Below, in pieces: positions 20,411 to 63,114 of a DNA stretch of 64,000 nt. Source of the stretch: an uncultured Phycisphaerales bacterium (GTDB taxonomy: Bacteria > Planctomycetota > Phycisphaerae > Tepidisphaerales > Tepidisphaeraceae); the NCBI GenBank assembly GCA_963755915.1, contig CAVWLP010000002.1, positions 2,944,001-3,008,000 of the forward strand. The letters run 5' to 3'. The translations under genes were made by a program, and so were the position numbers. The notes beneath the pieces are model-generated. The model was given only the letters and a program-made list of their open reading frames with translations. It ran no database searches and was not told the origin of the DNA. The first letter of the stretch is position 1. Each line of letters opens with the position of its first letter.

Positions 20411-21549
20411 ATGACACAACCACTACCGCCTGGTCAGGGTCCGGTTGATCCGCGCGGTGTCTTTTCCGTCCCCCCAGCCCCCGGAATGCCCCCCGGTTTC
20501 TCCCCCGGATTTCCCCCCCCCGGAATGCCCATGCCCCCGATGATGTTTCCTCCGCCACCCCCTCCCCGCGCCGCGGCAACGCCGCCAAGTGGATCCTCAT
20601 CATCCTCCTATTCCTCGCCCTGGGAATTTCCATCCTCGTAAACCTCTTCCAATTCGCGGCCACCCTCTCCGACGTAAAACAAACTGTCCTCTCCTCCGGC
20701 GGATCCGACAAAGTCGCCGTCGTCCCCATCGACGGCCTCATTGACGACGCCTCCGCCGACGCCTTCGACATCGTCCTCAGAGAAGTCGACAAAGACGCCT
20801 CCGTCAAAGCGCTCGTCGTCGCCGTCAACACCTCCGGCGGATCCGCCATCGCTTCCGACGAAATGTACCACCGCCTCGACCTCTTCAAATCCACCCACAA
20901 AATCCCCGTCATCATCGCCATGCGCGGCATGGCCACCAGCGGTGGTTATTACGTCTCCGCCGCCGGTGATTTCATCTTTGCCGAACCCGGCTGTCTCACC
21001 GGAAACATCGGCGTCCTCTTCCCGCGCTTCAACGTCAGCCAGACCCTGAGCAAATACGGCGCCTACGAAACCACTCTCACCGCCACAACCAAAGGCCACT
21101 CCTATAAAAACGCGGGCTCCATGTTCCAGCCCGAGAACCCTCTCGACGAAGCCTATCTCCAGGGCCTCGTCGACGGCACCTTCGCCCAGTTCAAGCAGGT
21201 CGTCCTCACCGGCCGCAAGGGTAAACTCAGCGACATCCAAAACGACATCTTCAGCGGCAAAGCCTTCATTGCCGCCGACGCTCTCTCCCGCGGCCTCATC
21301 GACCAGATCGGATATCCCGACGCCGCCTATGACTACGCCGCCAAAACCGCCGGACTCACCTCCTGGTCCGTCGTCAAATATCAGAAAAACGTCAGCCTCT
21401 TCGACACCTTATCCTCACGCTCAAATTTGCCGACCGGACAGGCAAGCAGCTCCGAAGCCGGACTATCCCTCAATGGCGTAGCCATCGACGCAAAAACCGC
21501 CGCCGCACTCTTTACTTCCCGGCCCCTGCTCCTTTGGCGAGGAAACTGA
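20411..21549 (+). CDS. sppA: Signal peptide peptidase SppA (S49) with Pro-rich N-terminus; frameshift near 20570
   Basis: VNTSGGSAIASDEM, MATSGGYYVS, TGNIGV, GLIDQIG. Confidence 0.88.
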
Positions 21550-27185: not shown

Positions 27186-27679
27186 TTCCCTCCTGGCGAA
27201 CCCTCGCCCTGATCGCCACCGCAGTCTTCCTCTTCGGCTACCCCATCTTCGAGTACGCCGACATCTGGTTGACCGGTGGCATCACCCACCAGGGAAATCT
27301 CCTCGTCGTCGACCTCAAGGCCCTCTCCAGCTTCGAGATGGACCAGGACAACGGCACCGACAACGACATTCCCCAGCGCTACCGACAGCTCGACGGCAAA
27401 AAAGTCCTCCTCATCGGCCAGATGTACAACCCCTACGCCGCCGACGACGGCCAGGTCCGCGTCTTCACCCTCGTCTATTCCATCTCCAACTGCTGCTTCA
27501 ACGGCCCCCCCAAAGTCCAGCATTTCATCCAGGCAACGGTCCCCCCCGGAAAAAACGTCAGCGACTCCACCGGCGATTTCGTAAACGTCATCGGCACGTT
27601 GCACGTAGGCGTCCAATCCTCCGAAGGCCACGTACAAAGCGTCTACCGCATCGACGTAGACACCGTCTCCAAAAACTAA
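27182..27679 (+). CDS. DUF3299-like periplasmic OB-fold protein
   Basis: LDGKKV.LIG.M, CCFNGPP, V.GTL; ATGA overlap with the permease. Confidence 0.7.
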   Translation: MIPSWRTLALIATAVFLFGYPIFEYADIWLTGGITHQGNLLVVDLKALSSFEMDQDNGTDNDIPQRYRQLDGKKVLLIGQMYNPYAADDGQVRVFTLVYSISNCCFNGPPKVQHFIQATVPPGKNVSDSTGDFVNVIGTLHVGVQSSEGHVQSVYRIDVDTVSKN

Positions 27680-47674: not shown

Positions 47675-48655
47675 ATGACAATATCCATTTCCCACCTGGC
47701 CGAAAAGATTAACGCCGCCGTCGTCGGCGACGGTGGGGCGGTCATCTCTTCCATCGCCACCCTCGAAGACGCCCAACCCGGCCAACTCAGCTTCCTCTCC
47801 AACCCCAAATACGAAAAGCTCCTCGCCACCACCAAAGCCACCGCCGTCATCGCCCCCAACCACACCCGCTCCAAATCCGTCACCCTCCTCCGCTGCGACG
47901 ACCCCTACTTCGCCTTCATGCAAGCCATGGTCCTGATCCACGGCCACCGCAAACATCCATTCACCGGCATCCACCCCAACGCCCACGTCGACCCCACCGC
48001 CAAAATCGCCGAAGGCTGCACGATCTACCCCGGCGTCTACGTCGGCCCCCGCGCCACCTTGGGCCGCGACTGCCTCCTCTACCCCAATTCCGTCGTCTAC
48101 GATGACTGCATCCTCCACGACCGCGTCACCCTCCACGCCGGCGCCGTCATCGGCGTAGACGGCTTCGGCTACGCCACCCACGCCGGCGCCCACCACAAAA
48201 TCCCCCAAATCGGCATCGTCGAACTCATGAACGACGTAGAAATCGGCGCCAACGCCACCATCCAGCGCGCCACATTAGGAAAAACCATCATCGGCGCAGG
48301 CACCAAAATCGACGACCTCGCAGTCATCGGCCACGGCACCACCATCGGCGACCACGCCCTCATCGTCTCCCTCTCCGGAATCGCCGGCTCCACCAAAATC
48401 GGCCACCACCTCACCCTCGGCGGCCAGGCCGGCATCGCCGGACACCTCCTCCTCGGCAACCACGTCTCCATCGCCGCCCGCGCCGGTGTCGCCACCAACG
48501 CCCCCGACAACGTCATCCTCTACGGAGCCCCCGCAACCCCCGCCCCCCACGGCCGAAAGGCCATCACCCTCCTCGCCCAACTCCCCGAAATCGTCGACCG
48601 AATCCGAAAATTAGAAAAATCCCGAAATAAATCCCCCCAAAAACGTCACAAATAA
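47675..48655 (+). CDS. lpxD: UDP-3-O-acylglucosamine N-acyltransferase
   Basis: LSFLSNPKY, hexapeptide repeats, DGFGY, KIPQIG, VEIGAN.TI.R, TKID. Confidence 0.94.
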
Positions 48656-48724
48656 CAGCCGACATGACATCTACTATATGGAAACGCCCACGGCGCCGCC
48701 GTGGGGCATTTATGCCCATTCCCT

Positions 48725-48795
48725 GCCCAACACCCCAATGCCACCCCGAACTTCACCAGGCCAGCCATGTGTCCCCGCGGCGGAACCGCGTTTTA
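48725..48795 (+). repeat. ~125-bp repeat family A, copy 4, left half (interrupted by IS110)
   Basis: GCCCAACACC...GCGGCGGAACCGCGTTTTA, then IS sequence. Confidence 0.9.
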
Positions 48796-48870
48796 TAATC
48801 GCATGAAAGGCCATCTCCCTGCCGGAAGTTAACATTCCGGTTTTGGTGTCATTCACACAAGGAGATAGCC

Positions 48871-50070
48871 ATGAAGTTATACGACAAGGTAGTTCAGGTA
48901 GGGCTGGACGTCCATCGGAAGTTCTCGTCCGCCAGTCTGCGCGACGCTTCCGGGAAGGTCATTGCTCGCGAACGCCTGGATCACCTGGATCGCCAAAAGC
49001 TTCGAGAGCGAATCGCTCAGTGGCCGCGAGGCACGCCGGTGATCCTGGAAGCGACATTTGGCTGGGGATGGCTCAGCGATGAGTTGCAGATTTTGAACAT
49101 GCAGCCCCACCTGGCCTCGAGCCGCAAAGTGGCGGCATGGCGGGAAGGACGCGGGATCGCCAAGAGCAACAAGGTCGATGCCGACCTGCTCAGTGAACTC
49201 TGGAACGAAAAACCGATATTTAAGCGAGGCATCATGAAGCGCTGGTGGGAAGTCTGGCTGGCCCCACGCGAGATTCGTGATCAGCGGGAGCTGCTGCGCC
49301 ATCGGATGACCCTCGTTCAGGCTCAAACGCAGTTGAAAAATCGCATTCACGCGACGCTGCACCGCCATGGAATCGTCAGCGAGCTCACCGACCTCTTCGG
49401 TGTGCAGGGCCGGCGTTTCCTGTCGCTGCTCACCGAGGACAAGACCCTGAGCCTCTCAGGACGCCAGACGCTCAAGGAAGATCTCATGCTGCTGGATTCT
49501 CTGCGTCGCCTGATCGCACGGGCCACCCGCCGGTTCCGCGCGACCATGAAACGATCGGAGATCGGCCAGCGCCTGATGACCGTGCCGGGCATCTCCACCG
49601 TGCTGGGATATACGCTGGTCGCCGAGATCGGCCGAATCGATCGTTTCTCCTCCAGTCGATGCCTGCTCCAATACAGCCTGCTGGCGCCGCAGGCCGACGA
49701 CAGCGGAGAAGATCGCGATGCCAAGCCCATCGGCCGCCGACTTGGTCACGCCGGTCGCACTACCCTTCAGTGGGCCTTTATTCAGGCCGCCCACTCGGCA
49801 GTGCAAAGGGACGCTTTTTTGCGAGAACTTTTCAATCGCCGTACCAACAACGGCAAACAGGACCGCGGTCGCGGCTACATCACCGTCGCCAACCGCATAT
49901 GTCGGATCGTCTATTCAATGTGGAACAACAACCAGGATTATCAGGAGGTGCCGCCCCCAAGACCGGGAAGCAAAAGACATAAGGAACTGATCTCGTCCGG
50001 AAGTGGGCCAGCCCTGGCTCGAATTGGCCATGAGCCCGAAGCAATTCAGGCTCGAGAGGCCACGTTATAA
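48871..50070 (+). CDS. IS110 family RuvC-like recombinase/transposase
   Basis: GLDVH, ILEAT, KSNKVDA, coiled coil, TVPGIS...AEIG.IDRF, DSG serine loop; GGAG RBS. Confidence 0.95.
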   Translation: MKLYDKVVQVGLDVHRKFSSASLRDASGKVIARERLDHLDRQKLRERIAQWPRGTPVILEATFGWGWLSDELQILNMQPHLASSRKVAAWREGRGIAKSNKVDADLLSELWNEKPIFKRGIMKRWWEVWLAPREIRDQRELLRHRMTLVQAQTQLKNRIHATLHRHGIVSELTDLFGVQGRRFLSLLTEDKTLSLSGRQTLKEDLMLLDSLRRLIARATRRFRATMKRSEIGQRLMTVPGISTVLGYTLVAEIGRIDRFSSSRCLLQYSLLAPQADDSGEDRDAKPIGRRLGHAGRTTLQWAFIQAAHSAVQRDAFLRELFNRRTNNGKQDRGRGYITVANRICRIVYSMWNNNQDYQEVPPPRPGSKRHKELISSGSGPALARIGHEPEAIQAREATL

Positions 50071-50199
50071 TTGGGCCGCCCGCGCCGGATGAGATCATGT
50101 GCCGCTCGGCCAAACGCTGTTGATCGGGCCCGGCCAGCACGAATGGATATATGGACCGCCGAGAGGCCAGTCACCAGCCGGCAGACGGACGAAGAGGTC
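49989..50199 (+). ncRNA. Predicted bridge/seek RNA of the IS1111-type element
   Basis: Closing stem 49989-49999/50186-50199; target arm 50003-50083; donor arm 50084-50182; loop segments match the target flank and the donor junction. Confidence 0.8.
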
Positions 50200-50246
50200 T
50201 CGGAATGAAAAAGAAGTAACCGCTTTTCGCGAGGAGAATTTTTTTG

Positions 50247-50270
50247 TTGATCGGGGAAGCCTTTCATGGA
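50247..50270 (+). promoter_or_regulatory. -35 half of the circle-junction promoter
   Basis: TTGATC (50247-50252)-16 nt-GA|TAAT, formed only when 50270 is joined to 48796. Confidence 0.65.
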
Positions 50271-50330
50271 TATTCGAGCCACCGCATTTCCTCGTCACTC
50301 AAACCACAACCGAAAATACTCTTCTTCTTC
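50271..50330 (+). repeat. ~125-bp repeat family A, copy 4, right half
   Basis: TATTCGAGCCACCGC...CTCGTCACTCAAACCACAACCGAAAATACTCTT. Confidence 0.9.
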
Positions 50331-50460
50331 TCTCTGTATGCCGACTCGAATTCCTCACTGGACAAGAAAGACACCATCCCATCGCAACAATTTTGCACTA
50401 CCTTGTTCTGAATCCCCCAACATGTTCTAATTTAATTTTAACAGCAAACCCCGCGGAAAT

Positions 50461-51585
50461 ATGGGCTTCATAGAACGCATGAAATGGTGGCACTGGACCC
50501 TCATCAGCATCGCTCTCGGTGCATTCCTCGCCTACATCAACTCCGGCGGCGCCGACACCTCCGTCAACCACGAATCCGTCTCCACCGTAACCTTCGAAAC
50601 CGGCCTCCTCCTCCGCCCCTGGGTCGACCCCAGCAACCCCAACCGCCGCGAGGCCTGGTTCAGCGGCCTCGTCATCCACCCCGTCCAGGACGTCCCCGTC
50701 GGCGACCACACCGTCAAGATGCAGCTCATCAGCTTCACCCGCCTCCTCGCCCCCGACAAAGACCACCCCTCCGGCTCAACCCAAACCCAATGGTGCTGGG
50801 TGCCTTTCCCCTACGAGCCCACCCCACGCCAGAGCGCCCGCGCCAACAGCCAGCCTTATCCTGGCACCAGCGTCTACGTCGGAAAAAAAGGCGACACCCT
50901 CGACTCCCTCGCCGCTCGCTTCTATCACAAGTCCACGCCCCTCGGCATCCACTCCATCATCTATGCCAACTCCTCCCTCCGCGAAGCCCACGGCCCATCC
51001 CAAATCAAAATCACCCCCGGCCGCGCCTACTGGATCCCCTGGAACCCCGCTGACGGACACAACGTCACCGACTTCATCCTCGCCGCCAACCAATATCTCC
51101 AAAAGCAGCAGGGCGATAACGCCCTCCTCGTCTCCTTCCATTACCGCTGGTGGGAAAACTCCAAATACACCTACGAAGCCTGGATGATCGCCTCCTTCCT
51201 CCTCGTCGGCGTCATCTGGCCCACCCTCCTCTCCGTCATGATCAAAGGCGGCTACGGCCGCATGACCCCCGACGAATACAACCTAGCCCGCTTCAAAGGC
51301 GGCCCCGAGCCCACAACCGCCAAACCCACCGCTCCCGTCGTCACCCAATCCGACATGGACCGCCTCCGCGAGCTCGAAGAATCCCTCGCCGCCTCCATCA
51401 AAGCCTCTCCAACGGAAACTCCCGTCCCCGCACCCGTCGCCGCCGCCCCCCCCGAAGTCAAAAAACTCACCGCCACCCCGGAAACTTCAAAGATCGTCCC
51501 CCAATCCCCCGAAGAACCCACAGAATACACCGGAGAATTTTACCCCGTTGTAAAACCCCACGAAAAACCCAAAGATACCCCCTAG
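50461..51585 (+). CDS. Two-TM membrane protein with LysM-like domain and Pro/Glu-rich tail
   Basis: YVGKKGDTLDSLAARFY...IIYAN...ITPGRAYWIP. Confidence 0.6.
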   Translation: MGFIERMKWWHWTLISIALGAFLAYINSGGADTSVNHESVSTVTFETGLLLRPWVDPSNPNRREAWFSGLVIHPVQDVPVGDHTVKMQLISFTRLLAPDKDHPSGSTQTQWCWVPFPYEPTPRQSARANSQPYPGTSVYVGKKGDTLDSLAARFYHKSTPLGIHSIIYANSSLREAHGPSQIKITPGRAYWIPWNPADGHNVTDFILAANQYLQKQQGDNALLVSFHYRWWENSKYTYEAWMIASFLLVGVIWPTLLSVMIKGGYGRMTPDEYNLARFKGGPEPTTAKPTAPVVTQSDMDRLRELEESLAASIKASPTETPVPAPVAAAPPEVKKLTATPETSKIVPQSPEEPTEYTGEFYPVVKPHEKPKDTP

Positions 51586-51646
51586 CTCCACCCATGTATT
51601 TGTTTAGCCGCGACCCGCAGGGGAGCGCTTTCTTCGACTGATCCTT

Positions 51647-62695: not shown

Positions 62696-62760
62696 AATTT
62701 TCAGTCTACGCCATTTCCAAGCGCCCATCACCATCGCTCCCGAAGCCCTGCCACCTCACA

Positions 62761-63020
62761 GCTCCCTCGAACGTAACCAGGGCAGCCATGTGCTCCCCCC
62801 GCGGAACCGCCTGTTATATACGAGTCACCGGATCCCCTCGTCACTCAAACCGAAACCGAAAAAACTCTTTCTCTGATTGACCTCCCAAAAAATGCAAAAA
62901 ACGGATCCCCACAGTTTTGCAAAACACGCCCGGCCATGTGCTCCCCCCGCGGAACCGCCTGTTATATACGAGTCACCGGATCCCCTCGTCACTCAAACCG
63001 TAACCGAAAAAATCTTCCTC
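62761..63020 (+). repeat. ~125-bp repeat family A, copies 6 (62761-62874) and 7 (62930-63020), in tandem
   Basis: Two near-identical GCCATGTGCTCCCCCCGCGGAACCGCCTGTTATATACGAGTCACCGGATCCCCTCGTCACTCAAACCG units. Confidence 0.92.
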
Positions 63021-63114
63021 CATTTGATTTACCCTCAACAAATACAAAAAAATTCACCCCACGTTCCAAAATAGGTCCAAAACGTACACCCTTTGGACCT
63101 GTATATAGAGGCAC

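Follow-up and report, generated by a model that had tools for sequence, protein, structure and literature searches.

A Phycisphaerales IS1111-type insertion sequence with a putative two-module guide RNA complementary to its dispersed-repeat target

The stretch analyzed here, hereafter the window, comprises 64,000 nucleotides of DNA from an uncultured Phycisphaerales bacterium of the family Tepidisphaeraceae (contig CAVWLP010000002.1, positions 2,944,001 to 3,008,000 of the forward strand). It carries an insertion sequence (IS) that, judged by its sequence features, is an IS110-family element of the IS1111 type. The element consists of a 75-nt leader, a single open reading frame (ORF) for a transposase and a non-coding right end of 200 nt, so that most of the non-coding DNA around the transposase gene lies downstream of it, and it splits one copy of a dispersed intergenic repeat, termed family A, into two halves (Table 1). 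Our analysis suggests, with a probability of roughly 0.87 for the RNA-guided explanation as a whole, that this active or recently active element picks its insertion site by base pairing of its own non-coding RNA with DNA. Site and orientation specificity, a conserved RNA structure and guide–target complementarity that covaries with the target are all observed here, whereas RNA production and binding, circle formation, promoter activity and catalysis would follow the published behavior of the family.

At the left junction, ...GCGTTTTA-TA is followed by ATCGCATGAAAGGC, and at the right junction GCCTTTCATGGA-TA is followed by TTCGAGCC. Excision of the element leaves a sequence colinear with the uninterrupted repeat copies and containing exactly one TA, as judged from an alignment of 45 copies. 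This bears out the claim of an earlier sequence-only reading that an IS1111-type element lies precisely in a dispersed repeat, with a reconstructable empty site. The exact position of the junction is ambiguous by a common ATA. For comparison, we collected transposase relatives (45–83% identity) from 61 loci of Phycisphaerae and other metagenome-assembled genomes (MAGs). These relatives start with TAATC... and finish with ...GGATA, and because only TA is common to their ends and flanks, TA is the crossover core and the target is not duplicated. The arms of the sub-terminal inverted repeats (IRs) are 10 bp long, which is within the 7–17 bp of the IS1111 group, and lie 6 and 2 nt inward of the element ends. 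The offsets of 7 and 3 nt proposed earlier hold for the inner 8 bp and not for the full arms.

Database comparisons support the family assignment of the encoded DEDD transposase. Pfam searches detect both the N-terminal DEDD/RuvC-like domain (PF01548, E 7e-9) and the C-terminal IS116/IS110/IS902 domain (PF02371, E 2e-13), and the NCBIfam model NF033542 ('IS110 family RNA-guided transposase') scores 161.5 bits at a cut-off of 140. The catalytic residues and the SG motif are in place: D13, E60, D103, S278 and G279 are invariant in an alignment with seven relatives, and the fourth acidic position, D105, is aligned with Glu in IS5075. The nearest named transposases in a plasmid collection are those of IS4321 and IS5075, with 27–28% identity over ~90% of the length; the IS5075 transposase could be aligned over its full length (28% identity, E 1e-20). 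With the recombinases of IS621 and ISCro4, whose structures are solved, similarity is confined to the C-terminal domain (E about 1e-3); the IS621 match (PDB 8WT6) covers the C-terminal 117 amino acids (E 7e-4). Among relatives, protein similarity ends near residue 366–381, while nucleotide conservation of the RNA helices described below goes on. Therefore, it is the putative RNA that is the conserved entity in this region, and the ORF length of 399 amino acids probably overstates the transposase.

The genome (6.63 Mb in 3 contigs) contains four copies of the element, at C2:1052361, C2:2992796 (the window copy), C2:348430 and C3:899529, and they are 100% identical. All four interrupt family A at the same TA and in the same orientation, with left flanks ending in ...GGCGGAACCGCGTTTTA and right flanks beginning with TATTCGAG; none is located at an unrelated site. 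Insertion thus takes place into a specific sequence, in a single orientation and without target-site duplication, as is typical of the IS110 family. Four such copies might also have arisen by duplication or recombination of one element-plus-flank segment, and the left flanks at C2:348430 and C3:899529, which are 97.5% identical over 122 nt, would fit that scenario. However, the right flanks of the same two copies differ. Moreover, flank similarity between copies stops within 60–122 nt, inside the repeat and its sub-family extension, and 3 kb of outer flank on each side is unrelated among the four copies save for the repeat and a few short matches. The unrelated outer flanks therefore indicate four separate loci rather than a duplicated segment, and we regard duplication as very improbable.

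The target, family A, is a repeat of ~135 nt with 45 copies, of which 4 are occupied by the element and 41 are empty. In iterated nhmmer searches it gave 49 matches, corresponding to the 8 halves of the occupied copies and 41 uninterrupted copies (38 near full length). According to crude ORF calls based on GC content at third codon positions, 42 of the 45 copies do not overlap an ORF, and their orientations with respect to neighboring genes are evenly distributed (12, 11, 11 and 10, with 1 unassigned). The consensus folds weakly on both strands (−3.8 and −5.4 kcal/mol), with short invariant hairpins only. Since the fold is weak and the orientations are even, the repeat is neither a classical repetitive extragenic palindromic (REP) sequence nor an orientation-bound regulatory element. 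Specifically, we rejected the classical REP or bacterial interspersed mosaic element, an imperfect palindrome of ~20–40 nt, in view of the ~135-nt length and weak fold, and a structured RNA or orientation-specific regulatory element in view of the weak fold and even orientations.

Could the repeat halves be the true ends of a longer element, with the 'empty' copies being internally deleted derivatives similar to miniature inverted-repeat transposable elements (MITEs)? Short non-autonomous IS derivatives are common, one of our loci (L064) is an internally deleted copy of 865 bp, and the repeat itself is mobile or deletable, as a copy is missing at an orthologous locus of the same genus. Yet relatives with the same TAATC.../...GGATA termini reside in quite different flanks, mostly GC-rich palindromes, which places the element boundaries at TA. 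In addition, the four elements are 100% identical while the flanking repeat halves show only 83–97% identity (pairwise matches), and the flanks are matched by complementary guides inside the element. Sharing of k-mers between the right end and the repeat does not exceed chance, with 839 of 2000 random genomic windows sharing as many 7-mers; the idea that the right end and the repeat have a common origin was rejected on the same grounds. We consider a longer element to have next to no likelihood.

The orthologous locus just mentioned belongs to a same-genus genome (G124:C4:546935–547757, locus L096) and was compared with window positions 47900–51600. The orthologous gene pair is ~92% identical, and the interval between the genes, which lacks the family A copy, is 55 nt long versus 217 nt in the window. 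It follows that copies of the repeat are themselves gained or lost. The L096 genome, which is 66% complete, gave no transposase match at E 1e-30. Among 140 genomes of the family searched, the repeat was found in 6 of 12 other genomes of the same genus and in 3 genomes of two further genera.

The evidence for RNA guidance comes from the region spanning the last transposase codons and the right end. By searching the whole 3′ region of each element against its own target and those of other elements, we revealed a 79-nt stem-loop (module 1) in which an outer helix (50004–50014/50073–50082) and an inner helix (50026–50029/50058–50061) enclose two putative guides. The structure is supported by covariation: over 18 sequences its 13 pairs have 96.6% of cells paired, compared with 35–53% when the strands are slid, and 4 of the 13 pairs show compensatory changes, a number reached in 0 of 500 shuffles. 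A single-sequence fold of the right end was not better than shuffles (z = +1.27).

The 5′ guide of the window copy is a perfect 10-nt complement of the second core base (A) and right-flank positions +1 to +9. The homologous strand of the relatives reads as the reverse complement of the TA core together with the first six flank bases. Among elements with a known right flank, 13 of 18 have at least 8 contiguous anchored matches to their own target, whereas none of 288 non-cognate pairs does so (permutation 0/10000). The 3′ guide shows the same behavior on the other side of the core. Its TTATA equals the left-flank TTA followed by the core TA, and over 15 elements the mean run of flank bases adjoining the core is 2.87 for cognate and 1.20 for non-cognate combinations (permutation 0/10000). 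The top-strand match (50015–50024) is located 5′ of the bottom-strand match (50063–50069), which is the guide order of the IS1111 group. The stop codon of the ORF, TAA (50068–50070), is made up of the presumed core-pairing TA and the next base of the 3′ guide, as is also the case in three of the eight relatives examined; in the other five, the ORF ends before the 3′-guide TAA. Taken together, a covariation-supported structure and guide segments that covary with target flanks are what would be expected of a guide RNA. They also agree with the earlier proposal that a multicopy intergenic site is what the element is programmed for, in the manner of IS621 with REP and of IS1111 elements with attC.

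Three other candidate guides, namely the 15-nt loop of the variable hairpin in the second module (AAACGC...), the GAGA-tetraloop hairpin and the conserved GGGCCGCCCGC, were rejected because they were either common to elements with different targets or inconsistent in register. The last of them proved to form the 3′ side of the module 1 outer helix.

Additional support comes from a natural variant. The 83% identical relative from a same-genus MAG, L023 (=L006), has ...CGTAT in its guide where the window element has ...CGAAT, and its right flank reads TA-TACGAG instead of TA-TTCGAG within the same repeat family. From the sequences, this is a single-base natural retargeting. The copy is decayed, with an in-frame TGA, an altered left end and a position between two inverted repeat modules, so that only its right flank is informative; its left flank was not predicted by its own 3′ guide.

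In the genome of this relative (G118, loci L103–L122), right-half modules of the repeat often occur as inverted pairs ~230–530 nt apart, for example C43:26903–26964 with 27383–27436 and C32:20417–20467 with 20691–20737. The repeat may therefore have a different, MITE-like architecture in that genome.

An alternative explanation is that the transposase protein itself recognizes the site, through the sequence of the repeat or a hairpin in it, and that the complementarity of the 3′ region is incidental. The TA does lie between two small hairpins of the repeat, and occupied copies have common bases at −6 to −4, outside guide cover. What this explanation leaves unaccounted for is the covariation of guides and flanks across 18 elements with different targets, in which not a single non-cognate pair reaches 8 bases, and the single-base natural retargeting. 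Moreover, RNA guidance has been shown experimentally in other family members, as reported in the available parts of PMC11187229 and PMC11208160. Recognition by protein alone thus appears improbable, and guidance by RNA remains the preferred explanation.

The distribution of occupied sites within the repeat is also consistent with RNA guidance. Around the TA, repeat positions −6 to +3 vary and distinguish the copies with an insertion from those without: all 4 occupied copies contain the 16-mer GCGTTTTATATTCGAG, as against 3 of the 41 empty ones. Eight of the 45 copies carry the 11-mer TTATATTCGAG, which the guides cover, and these include all 4 occupied ones; the other 37 copies have no insertions. 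Given the first insertion, the probability that three more random picks fall into the 11-mer class is ~0.003 (calculated by hand as 7/44 x 6/43 x 5/42). In contrast, the earlier suggestion that occupancy depends on GAGCCA as opposed to GAGT or GAGCA did not survive, as the occupied copies read GAGCCA (1), GAGCCC (2) and GAGTAA (1), and at least 7 empty copies also carry GAGCCA. Nor is the window copy the only one occupied, as had been supposed.

Downstream of module 1 lies a second module with a three-way junction. Over 20 sequences its 11 pairs have 92.3% of cells paired, versus 24–42% when slid, and compensatory changes are observed in 4 of the 11 pairs; the closing helix, for instance, covaries from GCACCGG/CCGGTGC to GTACCGG/CCGGTAC. 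A single strand in the junction copies the right terminus of the element. In 19 of 20 elements the eighth base of this strand is the one with which the right flank begins (T in the window element and the 83% relative, A once and G elsewhere). Module 2 is therefore probably the donor-binding part. A multi-loop donor site has been reported for many IS1111 members by Durrant et al. (PMC11208160, in the part available).

The right end contains two copies of the 11-mer TGTTGATCGGG, one in the variable-hairpin loop (50117–50127) and one in the −35 region (50246–50256); the loop copy is conserved, as GTTGAT[CT]G, in the closest relatives only.

The two ends, if joined in a circle, would create TTGATC-16-GATAAT, a promoter-like arrangement that had been pointed out earlier and that is present at the sequence level. 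TTGA[CT]N is positioned 16–17 nt from the junction hexamer in 13 of the 14 relatives for which both ends are known; adding five relatives with an assumed left end makes this 17 of 19. A scan of 48650–50480 for consensus promoters found none. When integrated, the right end together with the target reads TTGATC, 16 nt, GATATT (window 50247–50274). Judging from sequence alone, this arrangement might drive weak outward transcription toward the gene that follows at 50461–51585; the consensus scan gave no call there. A search for public runs holding this DNA gave six soil-metagenome DNA runs from two studies and no RNA run. In contigs of four of these runs we saw the element joined to the flanks of its other copies and to other repeat copies; neither an empty-site joint nor a circle junction was found, but rare forms drop out of contigs, and the contigs therefore carry no information on the activity of the element.

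Some observations weigh against RNA guidance or against parts of it. Four sites with the guide-covered 11-mer inside the repeat and two outside the repeat are empty. GTTTT at −6 to −2 is common to all occupied sites even though it extends beyond guide cover. The 3′ guide is short, with three flank bases plus the core, and has G at −4, where all four occupied sites have T; it consequently does not explain the GTTTT of the occupied copies. For five of the 18 elements (L025, L031, L033, L044 and L070) the right-flank match extends over 3–6 bases only, and the 5′ guides of the window element, L023, L062 and L027 pair with just the second core base. The donor role of module 2 leans on an invariant sequence identity in which just one position covaries. 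The ORF, at 399 amino acids, is longer than the 330–350 quoted for IS1111 transposases in the available part of PMC11187229. Finally, Rfam searches of the entire window gave no matches at gathering thresholds, and for 48600–50500, at E up to 10, the matches did not rise above chance level.

Based on these data, we propose the following mechanism. A guide RNA with two modules would be encoded from the last transposase codons into the right end. In module 1, the 5′ guide would pair with the top strand of A-TTCGAGCC(A) and the 3′ guide with the bottom strand of TTA-TA, so that both guides jointly read ~13–14 bases centered on TA. Module 2 would probably hold the donor ends by means of the single strand that copies the right terminus. 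The DEDD recombinase would then exchange strands at TA, giving orientation-specific insertion with no target duplication. Since the site is present in a subset of an intergenic repeat, the element lands between genes. Expression would probably proceed via the excised circle, in which TTGATC-16-GATA is joined to AT to form a promoter.

Three further ideas are offered tentatively, and we think it unlikely that they hold jointly. First, the Phycisphaerae clade might represent a distinct IS1111-like branch in which the final part of the ORF houses the target module and the 3′ guide contains the stop codon; in that case, retargeting would rewrite the tail of the transposase. Second, the module 2 strand corresponds to the right end plus the first flank base, which suggests that the RNA might check the integrated end–flank junction and not the circle junction. 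Third, GTTTT at −6 to −2 could reflect an extra layer of recognition, either by the protein or through the small hairpin and T-run of the repeat.

Table 1. Features of the element and its target within the window
Feature	Position	Strand	Remarks
Left half of family A copy	48723–48795	+	nhmmer model positions 3–81; ends with GC hairpin 48776–48790, then TTTTA
Insertion sequence	48796–50270	+	1475 bp, counting one TA core; 4 identical genomic copies
Core dinucleotide TA	48796–48797, second copy 50271–50272	+	sole sequence common to ends and flanks in relatives
Left sub-terminal IR CATGAAAGGC	48802–48811	+	conserved in relatives
Leader hairpin	48821–48841	+	terminator-like match; same position in relatives; upstream of ribosome-binding site
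DEDD transposase/recombinase ORF	48871–50070	+	399 amino acids; PF01548 + PF02371; NF033542; last ~22 codons overlap guide-RNA module
Guide-RNA module 1 (putative), 79-nt stem-loop	50004–50082	+	overlaps 3′ end of transposase ORF; two helices enclose both guides
5′ guide (putative) TGGCTCGAAT	50015–50024	+	reverse complement of ATTCGAGCCA; predicted to pair with top strand
3′ guide (putative), within CGTTATA	50063–50069	+	same sense as top strand, predicted to pair with bottom strand; ORF stop inside
Guide-RNA module 2 (putative), three-way junction	50082–50184	+	closed by 50082–50088/50178–50184; variable hairpin; GAGA-tetraloop hairpin 50153–50173
Junction strand ATGGATA+T	50143–50150	+	last 7 nt of element (with core) plus first flank base
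−35-like hexamer TTGATC	50247–50252	+	16-nt spacer to GATA (50269–50272); GATAAT only on end joining
Right sub-terminal IR GCCTTTCATG	50259–50268	+	conserved in relatives
Right half of family A copy	50271–50329	+	nhmmer model positions 73–134; begins with core TA

Several features accompany the element and the repeat. The leader hairpin may, from its terminator-like sequence and position, block read-through from outside. In the occupied repeat variants (48776–48797 in the window), a GC hairpin (CGCGG-CGGAA-CCGCG) is followed by TTTTATA in a terminator-like arrangement, and the element inserts in the T-rich tail. The window has 7 family A copies in its 64 kb, including a near-tandem pair at 62751–62876 (full) and 62930–63023 (lacking the first 40 positions). 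Just upstream of the interrupted copy, at 48683–48711, there is a separate repeat of ~28–30 nt around ACGGCGCCGCCGTGGGGC, which has dozens of matches at 96–100% in three same-genus genomes and is also conserved at the orthologous locus L096, where family A is absent. In the deleted copy L064 (CBDUXT010000102.1, 1435–2300) of a related element, both ends and the three-way-junction RNA module are retained, but the target-binding module and most of the transposase gene are missing.

We did not find the lineage or the target of this element described in the literature searched (IS110, Planctomycetota, Tepidisphaera). Both the mechanism and the targeting of dispersed repeats are already known, and the element, which leaves the known mechanism unchanged, is a clear but ordinary example of them. 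If our interpretation is right, it provides a fully decoded natural case of RNA-guided insertion from an uncultured soil planctomycete lineage, with guides, target, a conserved putative junction promoter and one-base retargeting all legible in the sequence. It also adds diversity for the mining of bridge and seek recombinases and accounts for part of the repeat landscape of the genome.

Among known systems, the closest parallels are the IS1111 elements ISPa11, ISEc11 and ISKpn4/ISPst6/ISPa25 as described in the available part of PMC11187229. They too have a DEDD transposase, sub-terminal IRs and, on the downstream side of the transposase gene (tnp), a long stretch of non-coding DNA. Short and long seekRNAs have been reported for ISEc11, ISPa11 and ISKpn4, the short form being ~80 nt and the long form about 150–170 nt; the corresponding lengths here would be 79 nt (module 1) and ~181 nt (modules 1 and 2 together). 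In these elements, as in the window element, the top-strand match comes first in the RNA, 5′ of the bottom-strand one, with an overlap at the insertion point, and a promoter is described at the circle junction, a feature for which the present element offers the sequence alone. Targets that are repeated and often structured are reported for ISPa11 (REP) and ISKpn4 (attC). The target in the window differs in being a 135-nt non-palindromic dispersed repeat. Further differences from the ISPa11/ISEc11/ISKpn4 group are the transposase, only 28% identical to that of the IS1111-group IS5075, the hosts, which are Phycisphaerae (Planctomycetota) MAGs, and the overlap of the target module with the end of the transposase ORF, which puts the stop codon inside the 3′ guide.

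IS621, according to the part of PMC11208160 available, likewise has a two-module RNA (target and donor), each module with a guide for either DNA strand and a core of 2 nt, and inserts in a dispersed repeat, the E. coli REP. However, its RNA is encoded in the left end upstream of the gene, its guide order is reversed, its IRs are 2–3 bp long and its core is CT. In the window element, by contrast, the RNA would lie in the right end, its donor part has a multi-loop form, and the protein similarity to IS621 is limited to the C-terminal domain. ISPpu9 of Pseudomonas putida, another IS110-family member, can be likened by description only: the accessible part of PMC12288879 reports several copies in repeated extragenic sequences and the gene of a small RNA (Ssr9) downstream of the transposase gene. 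Finally, IS4321 and IS5075 of the IS1111 family, as far as their partial accounts go, also insert in a site- and orientation-specific manner into a repeated sequence. Their target, however, is the inverted repeats of Tn21-type transposons, and they belong to another host phylum and have a much shorter protein (334 amino acids).

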